Shown here: piece by piece, positions 3,590 to 27,761 of the stretch
How positions within the stretch are numbered: the first letter of the stretch is position 1
Layout: every line of letters starts with the position of its first letter
DNA from: an uncultured Verrucomicrobiae bacterium
Lineage (GTDB): Bacteria > Verrucomicrobiota > Verrucomicrobiia > Chthoniobacterales > Chthoniobacteraceae
Reading direction: 5' to 3'
DNA: 64,000 nt
Assembly (NCBI GenBank): GCA_963792695.1
Contig: CAWBXA010000002.1
Location: 4,441-68,440, forward strand
The notes under the pieces: generated by a model
What the model saw: the letters and a program-made list of their open reading frames with translations, nothing else
Told to the model about the DNA's origin: nothing
The model's database searches: none
Made by a program: the position numbers and the translations under genes

Positions 3590-5963
3590 ATGCGCCTCCG
3601 CTCCCTTCTCCCACTCGCCGCTCTTTTCTTCGTCGCAGGTTCGCTCCTCGCTCAAGGCGCCAAGCCACCTGCCGAGTTGCGGTGGGATGCGATGGACCTC
3701 GGGCCGTTCCAAAGCGGGACGTTCAAAGTTGGCGATCAGATCACCGCCAAGGGGATCGCGCTCAAGGTCGGCACGGCTGCGGAGCAAGGGACGGTGCTGT
3801 TCGACACGGAGTTACTCCGCTGGAGTGCCGCGTGGACGGGCGGTTTCATCAAGTTTCCCCCCGCGCGCGGCGGCTTGGAAGGGCAGATCACACCCGATGG
3901 GCAGGTGCAACTGAGGTCGGGTTATGCGCCTGGCTGGGCCTTGGCCGGCGAGATTGGCGACGACCCGCGCGACCGGCATCAGGGCCATTTGCCCGCCGAG
4001 GTAGCCAAGTATCGCGGGCTGCAACTCCAGGGTACGCGCGTGATCGTCTCCTACAACGTGGGGAAGGCCATGGTGCGGGAGACGGCAAACCTGGCTGCGC
4101 TGGCGGGCGCGCCCGTTTTTGAGCGCCGCGTGCAACTCGAGCCTTCGGGTGAAGCGCTCTCGATGCTCATCTGCGACCTCCCCGGCGCGCAAGGCGAGGG
4201 CCAAGGCGCTGGCTTGACGCTCTCCGAGCAGGGCCAAGTGGACCCCGCCTCGACCGCCGCCATCGTCGTCGCCGCCGTCGGTTTGCCCGAAGGGGCGAAA
4301 CTGCGGGTGGCGGCCAATGGGCGCGCGGTGCTGGATTTGCCCGTGCGCCCGCAGCGCACCAGCTTTCTGTTGCGCATCTGGAGCGGCATGAAATCGGCGG
4401 AGCCGTCCGTGGCGGCCCTTGCGGCAGGTGTGCAGGCCAGCCCGGTGGTGGAGGAGAAGGCCCCAAAGAGTGCGTTGTGGGGACCGCCGCTGGAATCCAA
4501 AGGGGTCGTGGCGGCAGGAGCAAGCGCTTACCTGGCTGATGAGATCCCGTTCCCCGAGGAGAATCCCTTCCACTCCTGGTTCCGCCCCGGTGGTCACGAC
4601 TTCCTGCCGGACGGCCGCGCCGTGGTGGCCTCGCTGAGCGGCGATGTGTGGATGGTGAGCGGGCTCGACGCCGGTCTGGAGCATGTCCGATGGAAGCGCT
4701 TTGCCACGGGACTCTTTCAGCCTCTCGGGGTGCGGGTCGTGGGGAACGACATCTACGTGCTCGGCCGCGACCAGATCACGCGTTTGCACGAGGAGAGCGC
4801 GACGGGTGAAGCGGCGGAGTACGCGTGCTTCAACAACGATTGCGTGGTGACGGAGAACTACCATGAGTTCGCGCTCGATTTGCAGACTGATCGCGCCGGG
4901 AATTTCTATTACGCCAAAGGCTCCCCCTGGCAGCCGACCGTGCAGAGCCCGCATCAAGGCACGCTGCTGAAATTCACTCCCGATGGCGCGAAGCTGGAGA
5001 TCGTCGCGACCGGCTTGCGCGCTCCAAACGGGATGAGCATTGGGCCGAATGATGAGATCACCATCTCGGATAACCAGGGGCACTGGATGCCCTCGAACCG
5101 GCTGAACATCATCAAGACCGGCGGCTTTTACGGAATGGTGCCGGCGGCGCATCGCCCGATGACCTTCGAGGGAAAAGAGGGCGACTACACGGCGGACCCG
5201 AGCAGCCCCAGGGACCAGGCGCTGCACAAACAGAACTTCTGGGGCAGCATCCAGACGCCGGTGCCGCGCGGAAGCTTACGACCTGCCGCTCTGCTGGATT
5301 CCGATGCCGATCGACAACTCGAGCGGCGGCGAAGTCTGGGTGCCGGAGGGGAGCAAGTGGGGGCCGCTGGGCGGGCACCTCCTGCAAATGAGCTACGGCA
5401 AATGCGCCCTCTTCGACGTGCTCACCGAAACGGTGAACGGCGTGGCGCAAGCGGGGCTGGTGCGCTTTCCCATCAAGTTTTCCTCCGGCATCATGCGGGG
5501 GCGATTTTCCCCGGCGGATGGGCAGCTTTACCTGACGGGTCTGCGCGGCTGGCAGACTGATGCGGCGAAGGAGGGCTGCTTTTACCGCGTCCGCTACACT
5601 GGCCGGCCCTACGACCGGCCGACGGCGATGCGAACCTTGCACACCGGTTTGGAACTCCGCTTCGATGTCCCCATGGACTCAGCGATGGCGAGCGACCCGC
5701 AAAACTTCAACGTGGAGGAGTGGAACTACCTCTGGAGCGGGGCCTATGGCTCTGACGATTATTCCGTGAAGGAGCCGCGGAAGAAAGGACGCGATGTGCT
5801 GGCGGTGCAAAGCGCGCAGCTTTCGCCGGACGGCAAGACCCTCACCCTGGCCATCGCGGACTGGCGCTCCGCCATGCAGGTCCACGTGAAATTCAAAGGC
5901 AAGACCGCGGAAGGCCGCGAGGTGGATGAGGAACTCTACAGCACCGTGCATCAACTCCCCTGA
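3590..5963 (+). CDS. Secreted beta-propeller protein of the PVC 'membrane-bound dehydrogenase domain' / glucose-sorbosone-dehydrogenase-like type, with an apparent frameshift near 5270
   Basis: Signal peptide MRLRSLLPLAALFFVAGSLLAQG at 3590. ORF 3545..5560 loses sense after ...NFWGSIQTPVP. The sequence continues in the frame of ORF 5304..5963 as AYDLPLCWIPMPIDNSSGGEVW...GQLYLTGLRGWQTDA. Function assignment is from memory of the family. Confidence 0.6.
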
Positions 5964-17193: not shown

Positions 17194-18060
17194 ATGGCCG
17201 ACGAAAACTCCCCCTCTTCCTCCGAACTCGACGACGCTTCCAAGTCGGAAACCATCCGCATCACTCTGCCTCCGAAACAAGAGCAGCCTGCGGCGAAGCG
17301 CGAAACCGTCCGCATCAACCTGCCTGGTCGCCCGGTCTCCAACACCGTGACTCCGAAAAAGGAAACGACCAAGCTGGCCGGGGGTGCGCCCGCGCCGGTT
17401 CTTCCGCCCACCTCGGTGGCTCCGACCGCGCCGCCCCCTTCCATCCCCTCCGCCCCAGCGGCACCCGGTCTGCCCAAGCCGCCCTCCGGCATCGCGATGG
17501 CACCTCCGCGTCCTTCACTGCCCGGCGCCCCGACTGCCACTTTGAAGCCACCGACTCCGCCAGCACCTCCGAAGCCGCCCGGCTCCTTGGGTGCCCCTGG
17601 CGCGCCGTCGGCTCCCGGAGTCCCTGCCGCCCCGGTCAAGCCGATGGGCTCGACTCCGCCGAAGCCGCCGTCGCTCGGCTCCAAGCCAACCATCCCCTTG
17701 AAGCCCGCGCCCGTCGGCGGCGCCGCACCTGGAGCACCGGCTTCGGCGATGGCCAAGGCGGCACCCAAAAAAGAGACGGCTCGCATCACGCTGCCGCCGG
17801 AGGGGACCGCCAAACCCGCGCTCCCGAAAGCGACTCTCAAAATGGGCAACACCCAGCCTCTGGCGCAGCGCCCGCAGGGGAGCAGCGCCAAGACCGTGGC
17901 GCCGACCCTCACCACTTCGCGCGCTGTCGTCACCACCGGCCCAACAGCTTCCGACAGCTCGGTCAACTGGATGAGCATTGTGGCCATGATCCTGTCGCTC
18001 GGCTCCGCCTACGTCGCCTACCTGGTTTACACCGCGGCCACCGTGCCCAACCCGCTCTAA
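17194..18060 (+). CDS. Proline-rich protein with repeated K-E-T-x-R-I-x-L-P motifs and a C-terminal TM anchor
   Basis: 288 aa. SETIRITLPP, RETVRINLPG and KETARITLPP boxes. C-terminal NWMSIVAMILSLGSAYVAYLVY. Co-directional with trxA. An antisense ORF of similar length was judged a shadow. Confidence 0.6.
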   Translation: MADENSPSSSELDDASKSETIRITLPPKQEQPAAKRETVRINLPGRPVSNTVTPKKETTKLAGGAPAPVLPPTSVAPTAPPPSIPSAPAAPGLPKPPSGIAMAPPRPSLPGAPTATLKPPTPPAPPKPPGSLGAPGAPSAPGVPAAPVKPMGSTPPKPPSLGSKPTIPLKPAPVGGAAPGAPASAMAKAAPKKETARITLPPEGTAKPALPKATLKMGNTQPLAQRPQGSSAKTVAPTLTTSRAVVTTGPTASDSSVNWMSIVAMILSLGSAYVAYLVYTAATVPNPL

Positions 18061-18073
18061 GACGTCTCTTCCT

Positions 18074-18403
18074 ATGGCTAGCGCTCATGTCGTGAATATC
18101 ACCACCGCCAATTTCGACGCGGAAGTTTTGCAATCACCCGTCCCGGTCCTGATTGATTTCTGGGCGCCGTGGTGCGGGCCGTGCCGCATGATCGCGCCGA
18201 TCGTGGACGAGATCGCCGAGTCGAAGGTGGGCAAAGCCAAGATTGGCAAGGTGAACATCGACGAAGAGGTCGATCTGGCTACTCGCTACCGCGTCAATGC
18301 CATCCCCGCCATGCTCTTCTTCAAGGGCGGCGAAGTGCAGGATCAACTCGTCGGCGCCACTTCCAAAGCCAACCTGCTCGCGAAGCTTGAGGCTCTGGGG
18401 TAG
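18074..18403 (+). CDS. trxA: Thioredoxin
   Basis: 109 aa with the WAPWCGPCRMIAP active site. Confidence 0.95.
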   Translation: MASAHVVNITTANFDAEVLQSPVPVLIDFWAPWCGPCRMIAPIVDEIAESKVGKAKIGKVNIDEEVDLATRYRVNAIPAMLFFKGGEVQDQLVGATSKANLLAKLEALG

Positions 18404-18511: not shown

Positions 18512-18955
18512 ATGCATATCCTTCAGGAATCCAAGGGGCTGGTCCACGAGTTCAAGACGTTCATCCTCAAGGGGAACGTGGTCGATCTTGCCGTCGGCGT
18601 CGTCATCGGAGCCGCGTTTGGCAAGGTTGTCGATTCCGTGGTCAAGGACCTGATCACTCCGCTGATCGGTCTCTTTGGCGGCCGGCCCGACTTCTCATCG
18701 TGGAAGCTTGGACCGCTCGGTCTCGGGAACTTTTGCAACGCGCTCTTCGCCTTTCTGATCCTCGCGGCGGTTGTCTTTTTCCTCGTGGTCAAGCCGATGA
18801 ACGCCTTGGTGAGACTGACGAGGAGAGGCGAGGGACTGGCCCCCACTCCGCCTGTCCCTCCGGAAGACGTGCAGCTCCTGCGGGAAATTCGTGACCTGCT
18901 CAGGAGCCGCCTTGCCGAAGAGCATCCGCCGACGCCCACGCTCGCGCGCGAATAG
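18512..18955 (+). CDS. mscL: Large-conductance mechanosensitive channel
   Basis: FKTFILKGNVVDLAVGVVIGAAFGKVVDSVVKDLITPLIG. Confidence 0.92.
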   Translation: MHILQESKGLVHEFKTFILKGNVVDLAVGVVIGAAFGKVVDSVVKDLITPLIGLFGGRPDFSSWKLGPLGLGNFCNALFAFLILAAVVFFLVVKPMNALVRLTRRGEGLAPTPPVPPEDVQLLREIRDLLRSRLAEEHPPTPTLARE

Positions 18956-19041: not shown

Positions 19042-20713
19042 CTACTCGCACTCGCAGACGACGCGGAATCCGACATCGTTGGCGAGGTACTCGGGGGTAT
19101 TGAAGGAGCGGGCGCTTGCACGAAGACTCGCAATGCGCGCGCGCCAACTGCCTCCGCGATAGACCCGCCGCGTGCCGTTGTTGGGACCCTTCGGGTTCAC
19201 CCGCGCCTGGCCGCGATAGAAGTCGAAGAAATCAAGGCACCACTCATAGACGTTCCCGGACAGGTCCTCGACTCCAAAAGGGCTGGCGCCGCGGGGATAC
19301 ATGCCGACCGGCGACGTTTCCGCGTAGCCGTCGTCGATGCTCGGATCGCTCCACGCGAAGCCAGTCCGTTTGTCCGCAAAGTTCGCGTAGTGCCCCGCAT
19401 CGAGCCGATCGCCCCAGGGAAAGACGCGGCTGTCCGTACCCCGCGCCGCGTATTCCCACTCCGCCTCGGTCGGCAGGCGGTACTTGCGGCCTTCGCGCTG
19501 CGTGAGCCACTGGCAGAAGTTCAGCGCATCCTTGTACGAGACGTAGATGACCGGGTGGGCATCATCCGCCCAAGTGGCGCGGCGGATGCGGTGGGCAGCG
19601 TCAAAGGCTTCGTACTGACTGTTCGTCACCGGATAACGTGCCATGTAGAAGCAACTCACGGTGGTGTGTACCGCGGGCTGCTCATGAGGGGCGGCGTCGC
19701 GCGTCTCGCTTCCCATCATAAAGGAGCCGGAGGGAACGAACAGCATCTCCATCGCCAGTTCGTTGTGGAAATTGGGGTAGCGCGCGCGCTCCTGCAAGCG
19801 AGCCACCGGCGAAGTATTCACCACCGGGGCGGCCGGCGAGGCCAACTCCTTCGAGGCCGCGGTTGAAGGACGCACCGCCGCTGGTTTCGCCGCGGGCCTG
19901 GCTGGGGCCACCGGGCTGCTCTTTGGACTGCCCGGCGTGCGCGCGGGCGCCACCGGCTTGAGCGGGGGCATGGGGAGATCGCCCACCTCTTCCAGATATT
20001 CGTCGATGATATCCTCCGCCTGCCCGCCCGTGAGCCCGAGACTCTCGCCCATGTTGCACAGTGCATCGCGTTGGTCATCCGTCATCTCGTCTCCCTCGAG
20101 GCAGAGTTTTGAGAGTTTCAGCACCCGGCGGAAATCCGTGGCCGCGTCGCCTGAGACCCCGACGGAAGAAGCGCTGGCCAGCGGCGCGGGCGCGACGGGC
20201 TCCGGCGGTGGGGCATTCTCAACGCGCCTGGCGCCGACCCGCTCGAGCTCCGCTCCGAGCACGCGCTCCATTTCCTCGCGCAGCAGGCCAAACTTGCTCC
20301 CTTCTTCATAGATGCGCGCCTCGGCGCTCTCACTCACCTCCTGATTCGTGATGAAGAACGGGATGATCTTCTTAAACTCGTTGATCGCCTCCTGGACGAT
20401 CCGGCTGCGCTGCTCGGCATCAATCTGCGCGCGCGACTGCGGATCGAGCAGCCGTGTCCGCGCTTCCGCCAGATAGCCTGGCGCCTCATCGAGGCCGCCC
20501 CGCAGCATCTGCGCGATGGGATTGCTCGGCTGATTTTTCAGCGGCAGCTTTTTCTGCCACCAGACGAGCAGTTGCCGGCAATGATCCTCGATCTGCTCTG
20601 GCGTCGGGTTGGCGTCGAAAGAGAGGCAGAGCCGCTCGTAGCAGTCGTCGGAATTGTACTTCCGCCAACCATCCCACCGCTGGGGATTGTCTGGGAAGGG
20701 GATTCGGCAGCAC
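19042..20713 (-). CDS. J-like N-terminal domain + Pro/Ala linker + C-terminal SUMF1/FGE-fold domain protein (third gene of the Hsp70 operon)
   Basis: ORF 19042..20508. The coding-like frame continues upstream (FPDNPQRWDGWRKYNSDDCYERLCLSFDANPTPEQIEDHCRQLLVWWQKK) with no in-frame start. GTG at 20713 comes into frame if one G of the GGGG run at 20698-20701 is removed. The FGE fold shows YMARYPVTNSQY...RLPTEAEWEYAARG...RGGSW...GFRVV. Confidence 0.75.
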
Positions 20714-20739
20714 CCGAAAAAGAAGCGTTCAGCCCCGCT

Positions 20740-22352
20740 TTACACCACCCTGATCTGCGCCAGATCAGCCGTCGCCAATTCGATTTCACTCTCGGAGAGC
20801 CCCGTATTGCGCGCGATCGAGACGCGGTTCTGCCGGCCATACGCCTCGACCACGACCTCGAGCACCTGGTTCTCGTTATACGAGTAGGTCAGCTCGACCG
20901 GCGAACCTTTGGGCAGGAACGGCGGCAGCTCGATGTCGCAAATGCCGAGCGGCGTGCATTCCGTTGGCACCGTGCTCTCGCCTTCGACCACCCGCACGAT
21001 GGCGTTCTTCATGTTCGCCTTTGCCGTGCCGAAGGAGTTCTTCGTCTGCACCGGCACCGGCGTCATTTTCCGAATCATCGGAAAGACGTATTCTTCGACG
21101 CGCCCATCGTCCCAAAGCACGACGCCCAGCGTATGCGTGGTGATGTTCGTCACCTTGATGAACTGCCCGTCGTCACTGGAAAATTGCTCGCGCACTTCCA
21201 CTGGCAGGGTTCGCTCGCCGAGCCGGTCTTCCTCGCCGAGCAGCGACAGGATCGCCTGCACCGCCGCGCCGACGGCCACCGCTTCATCCGGGCTCACGTC
21301 GTCCGCCACCCCGACGCCGGGCGCGACCCCCGCCATCATCTCGCGGACCGAAGGCATGCGCGTCATGCCGCCGGTGAGCAGGATGCGGTCGATGTTGTCC
21401 CAGGTAAGATTCGCCTCCTGCATGACGATTTCGCAGATCGTCTTGCACTTCTCCAGCAGGTGCCGGGCACGCGCTTCGAAGTCCTCGCGGGTCAACTCCA
21501 GCTTCACGCTCTTGCCGTTGAAGGAGTGAACGATGGTCGTCTTCTGGCGCGAAGAGAGCTGGATTTTGGCGGTTAGCGCGCGCGTGTAGAGGTCCTGGTA
21601 GCTCTGCAGATCCAGCAGCGGATTCTCGCCGTGAATTTTGTCAAACTCCTCGGCCACCCAATTGACGATGAGATCGTCCCAATCCTTGCCGCCGAGGCGA
21701 TGATCGCCATTCGAGGCGAGCATGCGGATGTGATGTCCGTCGATGCGCATGATCGTGACGTCGAAGGTGCCGCCGCCGAGATCGAAGACGAAGACCGTCT
21801 GGTCCCGGTCGAGCTTGTCGAGGCCGTAGGCGAGCGCCGCGGCGGTCGGCTCGTTGATGACTTGCAGGACGTTCAGACCCGCGAGTTGCCCGGCGTGCAG
21901 CGTGGCCGTGCGCTCCGCGTCGTTGAAGTACGCCGGGCACCGTGATGACCGCATCGGTGACCGGTTCGCCCGAGGTAGCGCTCCGCGTCGTTCTTCAGCT
22001 TCTTGATGATCAGCGCGGAAAGCTCCTCCGCGGAGTAGATGCGGCCGTTGAATTCGCGGTGAAACTGGGCTTTGCTCTTGCCCATCTCGCGCTTCACGAA
22101 ATCGACGATTTTCTCGGGCTCGGCGACGGCGTTCTGCTTGGCCATCGAGCCGACGATGGCGTTCTGGCCGTCGAACAGGATCACCGAAGGGGTGATCCGC
22201 TCGCTCTCCGCATTCGGGATGATCTGCGGCTTTCCGTACGCGTCGATGTGCGCGATCGCGCTGAAGGTGGTGCCGAGGTCGATGCCGACAGACTTGCGCG
22301 GCGCCTTGGGGGAGGTGGGATTCACAATGGAAAGCTCAGGAGTACGCTGCAT
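20740..22352 (-). CDS. Hsp70/DnaK-family ATPase, short form (about 535 aa), with two apparent 1-nt insertions near 21940-21975
   Basis: ORFs 21873..22352 and 20740..21954 join as ...[21 protein letters not shown]... Motifs GIDLGTTFS, DLGGGTFDVT, LLTGGMTRMP. Truncated substrate-binding region with no helical lid. Confidence 0.88.
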
Positions 22353-22377
22353 ACGACATGCCGGGGAAGGGGGAACG

Positions 22378-23259
22378 CTAGTCTTCCGACGGTTTCAGCG
22401 CCATGAGAAAACCTTCCTTCCACTTTTTGATGACGACCTCCTCGGCGCGCACGACGCGATCCTTCCAAAGAAAGCCGCGTTTCAAAGTGCGCACGACGGT
22501 CAGGTCTTCATCCGGATCTTCGGCGGCTTCCACAGCGACCGCGCGCTGCGTGCGCTTGTCGAGCTTCCCTTTACCGTTCGGGATTTGCGTGACTTCCAGG
22601 CGCGCCAGGACTTCGAGGATGAACTCCAAGTTGTGCTCGAGATGCAGCCCGATGCTCTCGAGCCGCCTCCCTAGCTCCTGCGATGAAGCGTGGCCCTGCA
22701 TGGCTTCCTGCACGGACGCAAACGGCTCGCTCATCTGCCGGTGAATGACGGAGAGATCATCATAAAGGGTGATCAAATCGCGAATCATCGGGCGATGGAC
22801 CGTATCGAGCAAAAACCCGTCCTTGTAGCTCTTCAGCTCCTCATGGAGCGCATCGAACATCTGGCGGCTGATCGTGTTGCGCTGGTCCACCATCGAGCGC
22901 AGTTCCGTGACGACGCGCGGCAGATCGCGGCGCGCTTCGTTCCCTTCCGCCGTTGATTTGTCGAGCCGGCTCAGGATTTGGGTATGTTCGCCACTCGCGC
23001 GCCCGACGGCTTGCAAGCCCTGTACGACCGGGCGGAGCATTTCGAAGAGCGACATGGCTCCGGGCGCGGGCTCCTCCACGCGCGCGATCTCCGGGGGCGC
23101 CGTCGTGGGGTCGGCGCCGGGTTCAGCGGCTTTCTTGACGACATGCAGCTTCGGAGCCGCGTGGGCGGCGCGATCCTCCAGCTCACGTTCGGCCTCGTGG
23201 ACCAACCCGTGCATCTGGGTCGCAAAATCGGCATCGGACAACTCGATCACGTCTGACAT
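22378..23259 (-). CDS. GrpE-like nucleotide-exchange factor (divergent, long N-terminal region)
   Basis: ORF 22378..23292 with ATG at 23259 (MSDVIEL). C-terminal beta-domain pattern LARLEVTQIPNGKGKLDKRTQRAVAVE...VVRTLKRGFLWKDRVVRAEEVVIKKW. Confidence 0.7.
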   Translation of the reverse strand: MSDVIELSDADFATQMHGLVHEAERELEDRAAHAAPKLHVVKKAAEPGADPTTAPPEIARVEEPAPGAMSLFEMLRPVVQGLQAVGRASGEHTQILSRLDKSTAEGNEARRDLPRVVTELRSMVDQRNTISRQMFDALHEELKSYKDGFLLDTVHRPMIRDLITLYDDLSVIHRQMSEPFASVQEAMQGHASSQELGRRLESIGLHLEHNLEFILEVLARLEVTQIPNGKGKLDKRTQRAVAVEAAEDPDEDLTVVRTLKRGFLWKDRVVRAEEVVIKKWKEGFLMALKPSED

Positions 23260-23325: not shown

Positions 23326-24135
23326 TCACCCACCGATTCCTGGTACGGCGCGGAGCTGCACTTCGCCCACTTCCAGAGTGAGCGCTTGCTGGGCCACGCG
23401 CAGGAAGCCCTCGGAGGCGTCGGTCAGCGCGACCTGCAACCTGCCAACATGGGAAGTTGGCGCGGCCAGTTGGGCCGCCTGCAACAAATCCCGCAAAGAG
23501 AGGGCGCAATTTTGCGCGGAATCCACCAGACGAATCGCAGGCCCCAGGAAGCGGCCGATGGCCGCACGAAGCAGCGGGTAGTGCGTGCACCCGAGCACCA
23601 GCGTGTCGATTCGCGCTTCCACCAGCGGGCGCGAGATAGCGCTCAATCACTTGGTCGCGTGAGCGAATCTTCCAGCCACCCTTCCTCGATGAGCGGCACG
23701 AGCAGAGGGCATGCTTGCGTGACGACCTCCACCTCCGGCCGGAGCGCATGGATTGCGCGCTCATAGGCGCGGCTGTGGATGGTCGCGCGCGTGCCGATGA
23801 CGCCGATGCGGCCGGTGTGGGTCGCGGCGACCGCCGCCCGCGCGCCGGGCTCGATGACCCCCACGACCGGCACCTTGCAGCAGCTCCTGAAGCCGCGGAA
23901 CGGCGAGCGCGGAGGCGGTATTGCAGGCGACCACGATGGCCTTGGCCTCCTCCGCCAGGAGCAGGCCGGAGATCTCCAGGGAGTAGCGCTCGATGGTGCT
24001 CTGGCTTTTGCCGCCGTAAGGGACGCGCGCGGTGTCGCCGAGATAGAAGATATTCTCCGCCGGGAGCACTTCGCGCAGCGCCGCGGCCACGGTGAGCCCG
24101 CCGATGCCGGAATCGAAAACCCCGATAGGGCGCAC
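23326..24135 (-). CDS. murI: Glutamate racemase, with at least two apparent frameshifts
   Basis: The protein is spread over three frames: (V)[15 protein letters not shown]...[11 protein letters not shown]...VVACNTAS, then [14 protein letters not shown]...TRATI..., then [17 protein letters not shown] start at 24135. Confidence 0.85.
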
Positions 24136-25362
24136 GGCCAGTGTGGCGCGTCGGAGCGCGGCAGGGGAGGGAGCGTGGCGTCGCGCGTCAATTGGTGATG
24201 AGCGCCGGGACTCGCGCGGCGGATGCCGCGACCGCCGCCTCCGTGGAAAGCAGGCGGGGTCGGCGTGGCGCCTCGCTTCTGGGCCGGCCGGGAGCAGCGG
24301 CTCGGCGGCACCGACGGCGCGGCCGCGATCGGCGGCAGATTCTTCAATTCCGGGACGCGCAGCTCGGGATTTTGCACCAACGCCGGGGCTGTCGGGCCCG
24401 CGACCGCGCGGCGATAATTGAGCGCCGCCTCGACGATGCCCGCCGCCATCTGCTCGCGATACTCGGCCAACGCAATCAGCCGCGCATCCGTCGCATTGGA
24501 AAGAAAGCCGCCTTCGATCAGCACGCCGGGAATCGCCAGGTCGCGAATGACGACGAAGCGCGCGCGCTTGATCCCGCGATCCGGCAGATGCGAGCGGACG
24601 ATCAGCGAGGCATGCGTGGCGGTGGCGAGCGCCATGTTTTCGGCATCGCAGCATTGCCCCGGCACTCCTGGGCGTCGGTCACCCGCGGGCCATCGGCCAT
24701 CATGGAGGGCACGCCGCGAGGCGCGAGCGTGTAGGTCTCGATGCCGGTGCCGGCGCCGCTCGGAGTTGAAATGAACCGAGACGAAGAGCGCGTTGGGGAA
24801 GCGGTTGGCAAAGGCGACGCGCTCCTCCAGCGCCGACGAAGACGTCGGCCGAGCGCGTCAGATAGACCTTGAACCCAGCCTGCATGAGCCGCAGCCGCGC
24901 GCGCATCGCCGGTGTCGAGCGTGAAATCTCTTCTCACGCCCGCCCGCCCCTTGTGCGCCGAGGTCCTGCCCGCCATGGCCGGGATCGAGGATGATCGTAT
25001 CGACGGCTCGCTGGCGTTGGCGATGCTTGCTCGGGCGCATCACCGGCTCGATCACTTTCACCAAGTCCATGCGCGAGACGCAAAGTTGCCCGCCAAGGTC
25101 GGTGCACGGGGTAGGAAAGAATGAACTTCAGGTTGTTGATGAAGAAATCCGGCGACCCATCCTCCCCGCGCAAGCTGCGCCCCGCGACCGTCAGCGTCAC
25201 CGACTTCGACGACCGCTGCGCCACCGTCATCCCATAAAACTGGGCCATGTTCTCGAAGGACACATACTCCCGGCCATCATGTTTCAGCAGCGTCCACTCC
25301 ACGGCGCGGCCTGGCAGCCCGCCTGCGAGCAGAGCCAGGAGCAAAAGAAAAGCGGCGCGCAT
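24136..25362 (-). pseudogene. N-acetylmuramoyl-L-alanine amidase (Amidase_3) with an N-terminal secreted domain, with four or more frame breaks; 3' end not resolved
   Basis: Fragments in several frames: MRAAFLLLLALLAGG (signal), [69 protein letters not shown]...IVEAALNY. Confidence 0.75.
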
Positions 25363-25547: not shown

Positions 25548-27761
25548 TTGCATCGGGCGCGCGTGCCTTCGCCTTCCCGCTCTCTCTCTGACCGCCGTCG
25601 GCGTCGGGCGCTGGCGCGCATTGCGGTCGGCTGCACGCTGGGCGTGTTGGCCCTGATCTATGCGCCGATCATCCCGCGGGCGTTCATTCTTCTGCTGCGC
25701 GGCGGGCACGACGCTTTGGCGAGCTGGGTGTATCAGCATTCGGAGAGCTTTAGCGCTTACAACAATCTGGAGTTGAAGGCGGGCGACGCGCTGCTGGTCT
25801 ACGGCCGCAAGGCGCCCCTCGATCCGCGGATCATCTTCCTCGCCATCGACTCCCAATCAACAGAACTCGAGTTGATGAGCGACGAAAGGGAGCGGCTCTT
25901 GCGCGACTCGCCTGCCTTGAACCTGATGGCGCAAGGCTTCCCGTTCAATCGGCGCGTCTATGCCATGGTGGTCGAGCGGCTCGCGCAAGCGGGGGCCAAA
26001 GTGGTCGCCTTCGACATGCTCTTCCCCAAGGACAAGGACAACGACGCGGAGGTGCGCTCGGTCTGGCAATGGTACCGCGCGCAACTCGTGGTCGGCAGCA
26101 ATCTGCAAACGCTGGTGGACGAGAATGGCTCCCCGCATCCGGTGCTGGAGCAGCCGACCACGACGCTTATTCCTTTCGAAATGGAGGCCGAGTGCGTAGG
26201 CTTTGTAAACTTCAAACCGGACGTCGATGGCTCCGTGCGGCGGGGCTGGTTTCGTTCGAGCGAGTTGGAATTGAAAGGACAAGATCCGGAGCCCGGGCGG
26301 CCGGAAGTGCTCTCGCTGGCCGCTCGGGCGGCGACCAAGGCAGGCTTTGATGCGGCCATCCCGGCGACCCACGAGACGACCATGTTTCGCTTCGTGGAGG
26401 ATGTGCGTCCACGCTCGCTGTACGAGATTTTCGTGCCCGCGCTTTGGGATGGGAAAAACTACCGGGGCGGCGCGCTCTTCAAGGACAAGATCGTCTTCAT
26501 CGGTCCATTCGGAAATTTCCTGAAGGGGGAACAGGACACACTCCCGACGCCGCTCGGGCAGACGCTTGGACCCCAAATTCACCTGAGCGCCTTAAACGCC
26601 ATCCTGACGAACGACTTTCTCTCGACGCCTCCCATTTGGGCGGAGCTGCTCATCGTCGCGGCGGCTGGCGTGCTGGCCTGGCTGGCAGGACTGGCGGTGC
26701 ATGGACCATTGGCACGCACGGCTCTCCTGCTCGTGATCACCGGAGCCTACATCGGCCTGGCGTTCGTCATCTACAATTCCGCCGGGCTTTGCCTCTCCTT
26801 GCTCAATCCAACGCTCGCGCTGCTTTCGAGCGGCTTTGTCGGGCTGGTCTGGGAAAGAGTCCACGAGCAGATGGAGAAGACCCGCGTGCGGCAGACGCTC
26901 GAGCGTTATGTCTCCAGGGATGTCGTGACCGAAGTGCTCGATAATCCGCAGAGTTTTCTGCACACCGCCGGTGGCGAGCGCCGGCCTTTAACGATTCTTT
27001 TCTCCGATGTGCGCGGCTTCACGACGATCACGGAGAGCGCCGATCCGGCCCAATTGGTGGCGCAGTTGAACGAGTATTTCACCGACATGGTGCGCATCGT
27101 CTTTGCGCATCGGGGGACGCTGGACAAATTCATCGGCGACGCCGTCATGGCGCATTGGGGAGCCATCATGAGCCGCGGGGAAGGGCCGGATGCCTGCCGC
27201 GCGGTGGCGGCGGCGCTCGACATGCTCAAGGCGCTCGAGCGGCTGAATGTGGCTTGGAAAGCGCGTGGCATGCTGGAGCTGCGCATCGGCGTCGGCGTCA
27301 ACCACGGCCACGCCATCTGCGCCAATATCGGGTCGGAGGAGAAGTTCGAGTTCACCGCGATTGGCGACCCGGTGAATCTCGCCTCGCGGCTCGAGGGCGC
27401 GACGAAGCAGTTTCAACAGGACCTGCTCATCGGCGAAGAAGTGGCGCCGCTGGTGCGGCAGGATTTCGTTGTGCGCTCCGTCGATCTCATGCAGGTGAGC
27501 GGGAAAACGAAGCCGGTGGAGGTCTTCACCGTGCTGTCGAATCGGCAGAGCGCCGAGCCGGCGTGGCTGGCGCGCTACGAGGAAGGCATCCGCCTCTTTC
27601 GCGGCCGCGGCTTTGTCGAGGCGGAAGCGGCGTTCTCCGAAGTGCTCGCCACCGCGCCGGGCGACTGGCTGGCCGAAGAGTATTTGCGCCGCTGCCGCGC
27701 CTATCGAGAAACGCCTCCACCTGAGGATTGGAATGGCGTCTCGGTCTTGCGCAGCAAGTAG
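25548..27761 (+). CDS. CHASE2 sensor domain-containing class III adenylate/guanylate cyclase
   Basis: 737 aa, intact. Periplasmic CHASE2-like region, three or four TM segments, then the cyclase core FSDVRGFTTITE...FIGDAVMAHWGA...TAIGDPVNLASRLEG. The start codon is uncertain (TTG 25548 or GTG 25563). Confidence 0.88.
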   Translation: MHRARVPSPSRSLSDRRRRRALARIAVGCTLGVLALIYAPIIPRAFILLLRGGHDALASWVYQHSESFSAYNNLELKAGDALLVYGRKAPLDPRIIFLAIDSQSTELELMSDERERLLRDSPALNLMAQGFPFNRRVYAMVVERLAQAGAKVVAFDMLFPKDKDNDAEVRSVWQWYRAQLVVGSNLQTLVDENGSPHPVLEQPTTTLIPFEMEAECVGFVNFKPDVDGSVRRGWFRSSELELKGQDPEPGRPEVLSLAARAATKAGFDAAIPATHETTMFRFVEDVRPRSLYEIFVPALWDGKNYRGGALFKDKIVFIGPFGNFLKGEQDTLPTPLGQTLGPQIHLSALNAILTNDFLSTPPIWAELLIVAAAGVLAWLAGLAVHGPLARTALLLVITGAYIGLAFVIYNSAGLCLSLLNPTLALLSSGFVGLVWERVHEQMEKTRVRQTLERYVSRDVVTEVLDNPQSFLHTAGGERRPLTILFSDVRGFTTITESADPAQLVAQLNEYFTDMVRIVFAHRGTLDKFIGDAVMAHWGAIMSRGEGPDACRAVAAALDMLKALERLNVAWKARGMLELRIGVGVNHGHAICANIGSEEKFEFTAIGDPVNLASRLEGATKQFQQDLLIGEEVAPLVRQDFVVRSVDLMQVSGKTKPVEVFTVLSNRQSAEPAWLARYEEGIRLFRGRGFVEAEAAFSEVLATAPGDWLAEEYLRRCRAYRETPPPEDWNGVSVLRSK

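Follow-up and report, generated by a model that had tools for sequence, protein, structure and literature searches.

A conserved verrucomicrobial operon encodes a lidless Hsp70, a GrpE-like protein and an HPD-less J-like adaptor that probably form a dedicated chaperone machine

The DNA considered here, 64 kb from a contig of an uncultured Verrucomicrobiae bacterium (CAWBXA010000002.1), carries three co-directional genes on its minus strand that encode, in this order, a GrpE-like protein, a short Hsp70 and a multidomain protein that we call the adaptor. "The window" denotes this whole 64-kb stretch, and all coordinates are window positions. We regard it as probable that the trio is a dedicated, chromosomally fixed, three-component housekeeping Hsp70 machine in which the adaptor targets a client, and that it is neither a general heat-shock DnaK system nor a mobile defence system. 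In the mechanism that we propose, the J-like domain at the N-terminus of the adaptor would dock on the Hsp70 through a remodelled interface, the C-terminal domain, which has the fold of formylglycine-generating enzymes (FGE), would bind a specific client or ligand, and the GrpE-like protein would reset and recycle the Hsp70 ATPase by promoting ADP release. Through the adaptor, the Hsp70 would be directed to a single class of target, much as HscB brings IscU to HscA. The GrpE-like gene (22378-23259) encodes 293 residues from an ATG at 23259, and is followed after 25 nucleotides by hsp70 (20740-22352; 536 residues after repair of the reading frame) and, after another 26 nucleotides, by the adaptor gene (19042-20713; about 557 residues from a GTG start), which was characterized with full-length orthologues, an AlphaFold model and Pfam. 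A first-pass annotation, made from the letters alone, had given coordinates and residue strings for the three genes, and all of these proved correct when the DNA was read again. It had also treated the trio as a unit that should recur in other genomes.

That expectation was borne out. When one genome per species was scanned, relatives of the J-like module turned up in 367 species genomes, and the loci examined are the best 80 of these (L012-L091), all from Verrucomicrobiota, mostly Chthoniobacterales, with the cultured Chthoniobacter flavus Ellin428 among them. Carriers of the operon are soil and freshwater Verrucomicrobia. The order GrpE-like, Hsp70, adaptor is kept in the 80 loci wherever the contig reaches far enough, and the flanks vary. 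Hsp70 is present in all except one locus (79 of 80), which is cut by a contig end, and tblastn matched GrpE in 66; contig ends cut 11 of the other 14. When the flanking open reading frames (ORFs) of the 80 loci were clustered, no further gene was universally linked to the trio. A cobA/hemD gene precedes it in 47 of the 80 loci, and rpsU often follows. This adjacency to heme genes may have a functional meaning or may simply reflect local synteny. In many Chthoniobacterales, L001, L004 and L005 among them, the trio lies directly downstream of hemA, hemC and a cobA/hemD fusion and upstream of rpsU, an arrangement not found in the window; a cytochrome c assembly gene is also present at L004 and L005. 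Full-length orthologues of the adaptor, 55-75% identical to it, are present in over 120 protein clusters that bear the name Chthoniobacter, Chthoniobacteraceae or Verrucomicrobiota. The corresponding identities are 80-94% for Hsp70 and roughly 35-70% for GrpE, a pattern that implies strong purifying selection. No relatives of the J-like module were found in plasmid or phage collections. The fixation of gene order across an order, the strong sequence constraint and the housekeeping neighbors all suggest a housekeeping function.

As judged from its alignments, the ATPase of the trio is a DnaK-derived Hsp70 that keeps the catalytic residues and the peptide-binding cleft and has lost the lid. The repaired protein matches the Pfam HSP70 model (PF00012) with an E-value of 3e-118 and contains the Hsp70 motifs GIDLGTT, DLGGGTFD and GGMTRMP. 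Its ATPase domain (approximately 21247-22295) aligns throughout with those of DnaK proteins (M. tuberculosis DnaK, E 2e-94), and the equivalents of the catalytic residues K70, E171, D194, T199 and D201 are unchanged when the protein is aligned with E. coli DnaK. The length of the E. coli reference sequence (638 residues) and the positions of R167, N170, T173, D211 and the VLLLDV linker in it match the published numbering. Residues 424-528 align with the beta-sandwich substrate-binding domain of DnaK (approximately 20767-21153 in the window), and the hydrophobic peptide cleft is kept, with F426 and A429 identical and V436 and I438 conservatively replaced. With only about 8 residues beyond the beta-sandwich, the protein has neither the alpha-helical lid nor the tail, in agreement with the first-pass description of an Hsp70 with all nucleotide-binding signatures and no helical lid. 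It differs from DnaK further in about 24 residues inserted ahead of the interdomain linker and in a longer L1,2 loop. Absence of the lid would imply fast, low-affinity client cycling.

This divergence makes it extremely improbable that the trio is simply the general DnaK-GrpE heat-shock operon of the organism with an unusual neighbor. The best NCBIfam and Protein Data Bank (PDB) matches of the Hsp70 are indeed DnaK, and JGI labels its orthologues (522-528 residues) "molecular chaperone DnaK". However, the protein scores 415 bits against the DnaK equivalog cutoff of 648, is only 36% identical to E. coli DnaK (288 bits), and lacks lid and C-terminal tail, and neither dnaJ nor hrcA lies near the operon. 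The orthologue is also named "dnaK 2" in the annotations of three metagenome-assembled genomes (MAGs), a number that implies a further dnaK call in those genomes. Within the window we found no Hsp70 other than that of the trio, and no canonical J domain. Membership of the two specialized bacterial families was considered as well. HscC was ruled out, since the Hsp70 is closer to E. coli DnaK than to E. coli HscC (32% identity, 211 bits), has no lid and is encoded together with a GrpE. HscA was rejected on a score of 317 bits against a cutoff of 708, and no isc genes are nearby.

The adaptor, a cytoplasmic protein, consists of a J-like domain, two helical hairpins, a Pro/Ala linker and the FGE-fold domain, with neither a signal peptide nor a membrane segment visible. 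An AlphaFold model of the whole protein (predicted local distance difference test, pLDDT, 75) shows a confident helical region at residues 10-165, a second hairpin at 183-238, a disordered linker and the FGE-fold domain. The N-terminus (20407-20664) is a J-domain homologue in which the His-Pro-Asp (HPD) tripeptide has been replaced by a near-invariant segment, WWQKKLPLKNQPSNP. A profile of ten homologues, compared by hhalign with nine canonical J domains, aligned over helices I-IV with 95.4% probability (E 1.7e-8). The model of residues 1-167 reached a pLDDT of 94.4, and its four best PDB matches by Foldseek are all J domains (DNAJC12, Tid1 twice and 2EJ7; probabilities 0.63-0.97, TM-scores up to 0.71). 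The adaptor as a single sequence is below the reach of the Pfam J-domain model (PF00226). The first-pass annotation had read this region as J-like without an HPD and had proposed structure prediction as a check; both the profile comparison and the predicted fold uphold that reading.

In the hhalign alignment, HPD falls on the Leu-Pro-Leu (LPL) of WWQKKLPLKNQ, inside WWQKKLPLKNQPSNP, which covers the end of helix II and the loop that follows (20518-20562). Among 48 orthologues this is the most conserved 15-residue window of the adaptor, with a mean column conservation of 0.974, and no homologue has an HPD, not even in the second J domain that distant members carry. The J-like domain is immediately followed by hairpin module 1 (20212-20394), which has no Pfam match and occupies the same place in distant homologues. 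Module 2 (19978-20145; MTDDQRDALCNMGESLGLTGGQAEDIIDEY) is an internal repeat of module 1 with a conservation of 0.84 and a pLDDT of about 90. The two copies share the pattern ...L.D..(L/M)(S/T)..(E/Q)...L...(A/G)..LGL......(I/L)I..(E/Y)L. By eye the hairpins gave a TerB/DjlA-N-like impression, but no Pfam match was obtained even at an E-value of 10, and we leave them unclassified. The Pro/Ala-rich linker (19807-19977) has a pLDDT below 50 and a conservation of 0.36. Both the J-like part and hairpin 2 are more conserved than the FGE-fold domain (0.77).

In canonical J domains the HPD motif sits in the loop between helices II and III and is needed to trigger ATP hydrolysis, and R167 of DnaK contacts its aspartate in the canonical complex. 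The surfaces presumed to meet in the trio have changed on both sides. Helix II of the J-like domain carries a net charge of -1.8, compared with +2 to +6 in canonical J domains, where this helix is basic, and the facing loop of the Hsp70 is neutral to basic (net +0.8), whereas that of DnaK is acidic (net -5). This inversion of charge on both partners suggests an interface that has been remodelled but retained.

The C-terminal 250 residues of the adaptor (19045-19794) have the FGE/SUMF1 fold, which is C-type-lectin-like, according to Pfam, Foldseek and alignment to human FGE. They match the Pfam FGE-sulfatase model (PF03781) with an E-value of 9.6e-55, and the closest structures found by Foldseek are human and bacterial FGEs (human FGE, E 7e-14; 31-32% identity). 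Of the cysteine pair that binds Cu(I) in human FGE, Cys336 falls in a three-residue deletion and Cys341 is replaced by Ile; the orthologue consensus likewise has no cysteine there, and the Cys-less domain noted in the first-pass annotation is thus real. Also absent are about 49 residues that correspond to human FGE positions of approximately 141-202. In the FGE of T. curvata, Trp84, Phe86 and Trp108/109 bind the Pro and Arg of the CxPxR sulfatase motif (PMC6676471), and by numbering offset, with no direct alignment of the T. curvata and human proteins, the absent stretch covers these residues. Lacking both the catalytic cysteine pair and the segment that binds the sulfatase motif, the domain cannot be an FGE and is unlikely to bind the motif. 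It follows that many Verrucomicrobia proteins annotated as "formylglycine-generating enzyme" cannot be FGEs. Sulfatase precursors, considered as clients by analogy with pFGE/SUMF2, are unlikely for the same reason, since the segment with the contacts to the Pro and Arg of CxPxR is deleted.

Two further assignments of this domain were rejected. A sulfoxide synthase of the EgtB/OvoA type does not fit, as the matches to the EgtB, OvoA and SenA models are confined to the FGE-fold domain at the C-terminus and score far under the respective cutoffs; the best NCBIfam match of the domain is GldK. A variable protein of a diversity-generating retroelement (DGR) was likewise discarded, because no repeat of the 3' 459 nucleotides of the gene was found within the window and the C-terminus is conserved among orthologues. 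Around residues 361-371 of the adaptor (19600-19660, minus strand), D364, H367 and R371 are invariant in a family-specific pattern, F-D-x-x-H-x-x-x-R-x-x-W. The three residues lie where true FGEs have the region that binds the sulfatase motif, in a shorter segment that takes its place, and are a candidate ligand site.

More remote relatives of the adaptor carry different domains at this end. An exhaustive search of 1.84 billion representative proteins, for which the first 308 residues of the adaptor served as query, yielded only 126 relatives. What the most distant of them, at 22-28% identity, have in common with the adaptor is the J-like module and hairpin 1. Most of these distant relatives continue with a DnaJ domain that Pfam recognizes and that also lacks HPD; the longer ones then have a membrane segment, and the C-terminal domains are PEGA, RodZ_C, Ig-like or TPR. 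The genes for these adaptors directly follow a GrpE gene and a gene for a lidless Hsp70 of 532-545 residues that is 47-50% identical to that of the window. A metagenome scan seeded with the C-terminal part of a distant Hsp70 added further cassettes, with PDZ x2 or LamG/LprI/YARHG adaptors, and a profile search for distant J-like modules in an index of 5.8 billion proteins gave a single match. Three-part cassettes with other C-terminal domains are those at L007-L011 and L092-L096. Based on these cassettes, GrpE, the short Hsp70 and the WW-type J-like module constitute a conserved core, and the far end of the adaptor is exchangeable. At two of the loci (L008, 3548-5638; L010, 1994-4039) an extra Hsp70, comprising ATPase domain and beta-sandwich and fused to a C-terminal vWA domain, is encoded beside the short one. 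At L093 a gene with a SocA/Panacea antitoxin domain (5332-5955) and a DUF3732 gene stand ahead of the cassette, the sole mobile or defence hint among the loci.

These relatives bear on whether the FGE-fold protein is instead the substrate of its partners. It could be a client, or a regulated or hard-to-fold enzyme of the SUMF1/EgtB/PvdO type that does something other than formylglycine formation, which Hsp70 and GrpE fold, assemble or switch; the J-like domain would then serve as a built-in recruitment tag. Public annotation does label the protein a "SUMF1/EgtB/PvdO family nonheme iron enzyme". Conservation of the domain is fairly high, its invariant D364, H367 and R371 lie in a segment that has no counterpart in human FGE, and AlphaFold is unsure about its large loops. 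We nevertheless consider this explanation rather unlikely. The adaptor contains no DinB-type iron-binding domain of the kind found in EgtB/OvoA, the Cu-binding cysteines are absent, and the J-like and hairpin-2 parts are under tighter conservation than the FGE-fold domain. Moreover, the distant cassettes have plain, non-catalytic binding domains (PDZ, PEGA, TPR, LamG) at the same position, so a targeting role fits better than an enzymatic one.

We also considered a conflict or antiphage system, in which an FGE-type ("FGS") domain senses an invader and Hsp70 with GrpE acts as an NTP-dependent switch or effector; the first-pass annotation had leaned this way. There is precedent in the work of Kaur et al. 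2020, who describe FGS domains as non-enzymatic binders in conflict systems and report HSP70, GrpE and DnaJ-fused proteins in GAP1-N2 GTPase systems (PMC7159879). The Hsp70-vWA fusion added in some distant cassettes and the single distant locus beside the SocA/Panacea antitoxin-domain gene are also in keeping with it. In contrast, no GTPase, MoxR, effector or toxin gene was found in the window or conserved across the 80 loci, and PADLOC-DB 2.0 gave no match apart from PDC-M61B at an E-value of 0.034 for the Hsp70. The gene order is the same in all 80 loci, and the neighbors are housekeeping genes (for heme synthesis, rpsU and murI). The FGE-fold domain shows conservation rather than hypervariability, with no DGR template repeat, and the family is absent from the phage and plasmid collections. 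A defence role is therefore unlikely, and we give little credence to the conflict system as an account of the trio. On the stable gene order and the lack of a PADLOC match, a DGR template or plasmid and phage relatives, we abandoned the earlier lean.

The third member of the trio is the GrpE-like protein. Its first 150 or so residues are acidic, Pro/Ala-rich and helical. Residues 158-279 (the homology region, 22423-22788) match positions 63-165 of the Pfam GrpE profile (PF01025; E 9e-9) with 35.7 bits, above the curated gathering cutoff of 25.8, which supports the GrpE-like C-terminal part first recognized by eye. Matches to the NCBIfam GrpE equivalogs are weak, the best being 25 bits against cutoffs of 137-266, so that the protein does not qualify as an equivalog. 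When a profile of 22 orthologues was compared with the PDB, the top match was GrpE of E. coli (1DKG), with an E-value of 0.005 over the end of the helical bundle and the beta-domain. A PDB search with the single sequence found no GrpE; the family profile alone reached it, and weakly.

Several observations weigh against the dedicated, adaptor-targeted Hsp70 machine that we favor. The J-fold matches found by Foldseek have weak E-values, between 1 and 5. With HPD missing, the canonical trigger of the ATPase is missing as well, and the J-like domain might only tether its partner, or might inhibit it in the way of Pam16. The equivalent of DnaK R167 is Gln in 75 of 92 orthologues and Arg or Lys in the other 17; loss of the canonical contact is thus not uniform, and a clean co-variation of R167 loss with HPD loss holds only partly. 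The contact between the J-like domain and the Hsp70 is itself predicted from sequence. What suggests a binding role for the FGE-fold domain is two things, the loss of catalytic residues and the swapping of domains in relatives. The name "dnaK 2" and the failed DnaK equivalog cutoff are indirect hints of a separate canonical DnaK in the genome. Finally, the Hsp70 lacks the loop of 6-7 residues at DnaK positions 286-295 that has been termed the GrpE signature in DnaK (PMC8215388). Contact with GrpE must therefore differ in the trio, or else the GrpE-like protein may do something else.

Among described systems, the trio most readily invites comparison with dedicated Hsp70/co-chaperone pairs. HscA-HscB is likewise a specialized Hsp70 and a dedicated J-type adaptor with genes together on the chromosome, and the non-J end of HscB, which binds IscU and delivers this client to HscA, can be likened to that of our adaptor. 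However, HscB has a functional HPD, and HscA keeps its lid and needs no GrpE; conversely, the adaptor has an FGE-fold domain in place of the HscB C-domain, and its Hsp70 is far from the HscA cutoff. HscC with DjlC/DjlB, the third E. coli Hsp70 system, shares with the trio a short specialized Hsp70 whose ATPase domain has deletions and whose L1,2 loop, in the beta-sandwich, is longer, together with J-protein partners of its own encoded nearby (PMC8215388). HscC differs in its 556 residues, its retained lid and its predicted independence of GrpE, and its partners have HPD.

The mitochondrial import motor, Pam16/Pam18-mtHsp70-Mge1, resembles the trio in combining an HPD-less J-like domain (Pam16) with an Hsp70 and a GrpE-type exchange factor, and the distant branch of the adaptor family, membrane-anchored and with two J-type domains in tandem, adds to the likeness. 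Yet Pam16 works beside the HPD-bearing Pam18, mtHsp70 has a lid, and the homology of Pam16 to the adaptor that the analysis covered is that of the J fold. The GAP1-N2 GTPase systems also encode an HSP70, a GrpE and a DnaJ-fused multidomain protein together, with FGE-type binding modules in related systems, but they are defined by GAP1-type GTPases and FNIII-repeat proteins and occur patchily in actinobacteria and firmicutes (PMC7159879). Next to the trio in the window there is neither a GAP1-type GTPase nor an FNIII-repeat protein, and the neighbors conserved across the 80 loci include none. The pFGE/SUMF2, PvdO and GldK/PorK proteins and the DGR variable proteins are, like the C-terminal domain of the adaptor, FGE folds that have lost the cysteine pair and serve as binding or structural modules. 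They have no J-like fusion and no co-encoded Hsp70, and the adaptor domain differs from them additionally in lacking the sulfatase-motif-binding segment.

Full-text literature searches, whose coverage did not extend to the widest survey of bacterial J proteins (Barriot et al. 2020), returned no Hsp70 linked to an FGE-fold protein, and no account of a bacterial Hsp70 that lacks the lid and comes with a GrpE of its own and a J partner without HPD. The first-pass annotation could name no system with GrpE, Hsp70 and an FGE domain, and the searches found none. A review of bacterial Hsp70 proteins recognizes three types, DnaK, HscA and HscC (PMC8215388). We view the trio as a variant of dedicated Hsp70/co-chaperone systems that stands a reasonable chance of deserving the rank of a fourth bacterial class. 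Such a class would be marked by a lidless Hsp70, its own GrpE, modular adaptors with a Trp-Trp segment in place of HPD and an inverted interface charge, and we propose it beside the other three tentatively, as a possibility short of our preferred expectation.

Two of the three genes had to be repaired before they could be read as above. Three 1-nucleotide insertions within 1.3 kb, in or next to short homopolymer runs, interrupt hsp70 and the adaptor gene. The raw hsp70 is spread over three frames as a result of one extra G in a GGG run (21969-21971) and another in a GG (21933-21934), both on the minus strand; removal of each restores the reading frame, and with both gone hsp70 encodes an uninterrupted protein with no stop codons. 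In the adaptor gene the insertion lies in CCCA at 20692-20695 (minus strand), a point across which the orthologues read LPNPLPDNPQRW. These begin (M/V)LPNPLPDNPQRW, (M/V)LPNPLPDNP, and in the window the frame changes between VLPNPLP and DNPQRW. The GTG start at 20711-20713 was deduced from the N-termini of the orthologues, as the extra base conceals it. Split gene calls are likewise found in the public assembly, where the adaptor appears only as a truncated call of 488 residues (P0001) and the GrpE-like protein is the same 293-residue protein (P0370).

Three frameshifts in so short a distance, hitting two of three genes and accompanied by split calls in the public assembly, might be taken for genuine lesions in a decaying pseudogene cluster. 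This is very improbable. All three are +1 insertions in or beside short homopolymer runs, and the repaired Hsp70 is free of stops and 94% identical to its closest relative. Just upstream, murI (glutamate racemase; 23329-24665, minus strand), which is needed for peptidoglycan synthesis, is also split over three frames: positions 16-89, 86-138 and 164-205 of the Asp_Glu_race profile fall in three different frames, in one of which an Amidase_3 fragment is fused. Because this neighbor is broken in the same way, we attribute the insertions to assembly errors that are neither locus-specific nor signs of pseudogenes, and the locus of a related long-read MAG (L019) is fragmented in like manner. Indels of 1 nucleotide are spread through the assembly, as in a long-read MAG.

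The trio is flanked on its upstream side by the co-directional Amidase_3 fragment and murI, and on the other by mscL (18512-18955) and trxA (18074-18403), both on the plus strand and convergent with it. Upstream of trxA and mscL lies a Pro/Ala-rich ORF of 288 residues (17194-18060, plus strand) that has a hydrophobic tail at its C-terminus and matches no Pfam family, and two genes past the operon, on the opposite strand, is a gene for a CHASE2-domain adenylate/guanylate cyclase (25548-27761, plus strand). In the 26-nucleotide gap between hsp70 and the adaptor gene, a short GC hairpin is followed by TTTTTC (20722-20740, minus strand). The terminator scan showed no enrichment overall, and the element could either act as a weak attenuator or be there by chance.

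The HPD motif is regarded as the defining, indispensable feature of Hsp70 co-chaperones. A lidless Hsp70 paired with a J-derived domain that lacks HPD, and in which selection is strongest at the very site of that motif, would offer a natural test of how far the J-Hsp70 mechanism is negotiable. The operon is open to experiment, because it is present in the cultured and sequenced Chthoniobacter flavus Ellin428. If the trio does represent a fourth class, an Hsp70 can couple to a co-chaperone without the canonical J-domain mechanism, and exchangeable adaptor ends (FGE-fold, PDZ, PEGA, RodZ_C, LamG) would direct the same machine to different targets in different phyla. The modular relatives suggest that this may be a general way of aiming Hsp70 at specific targets.

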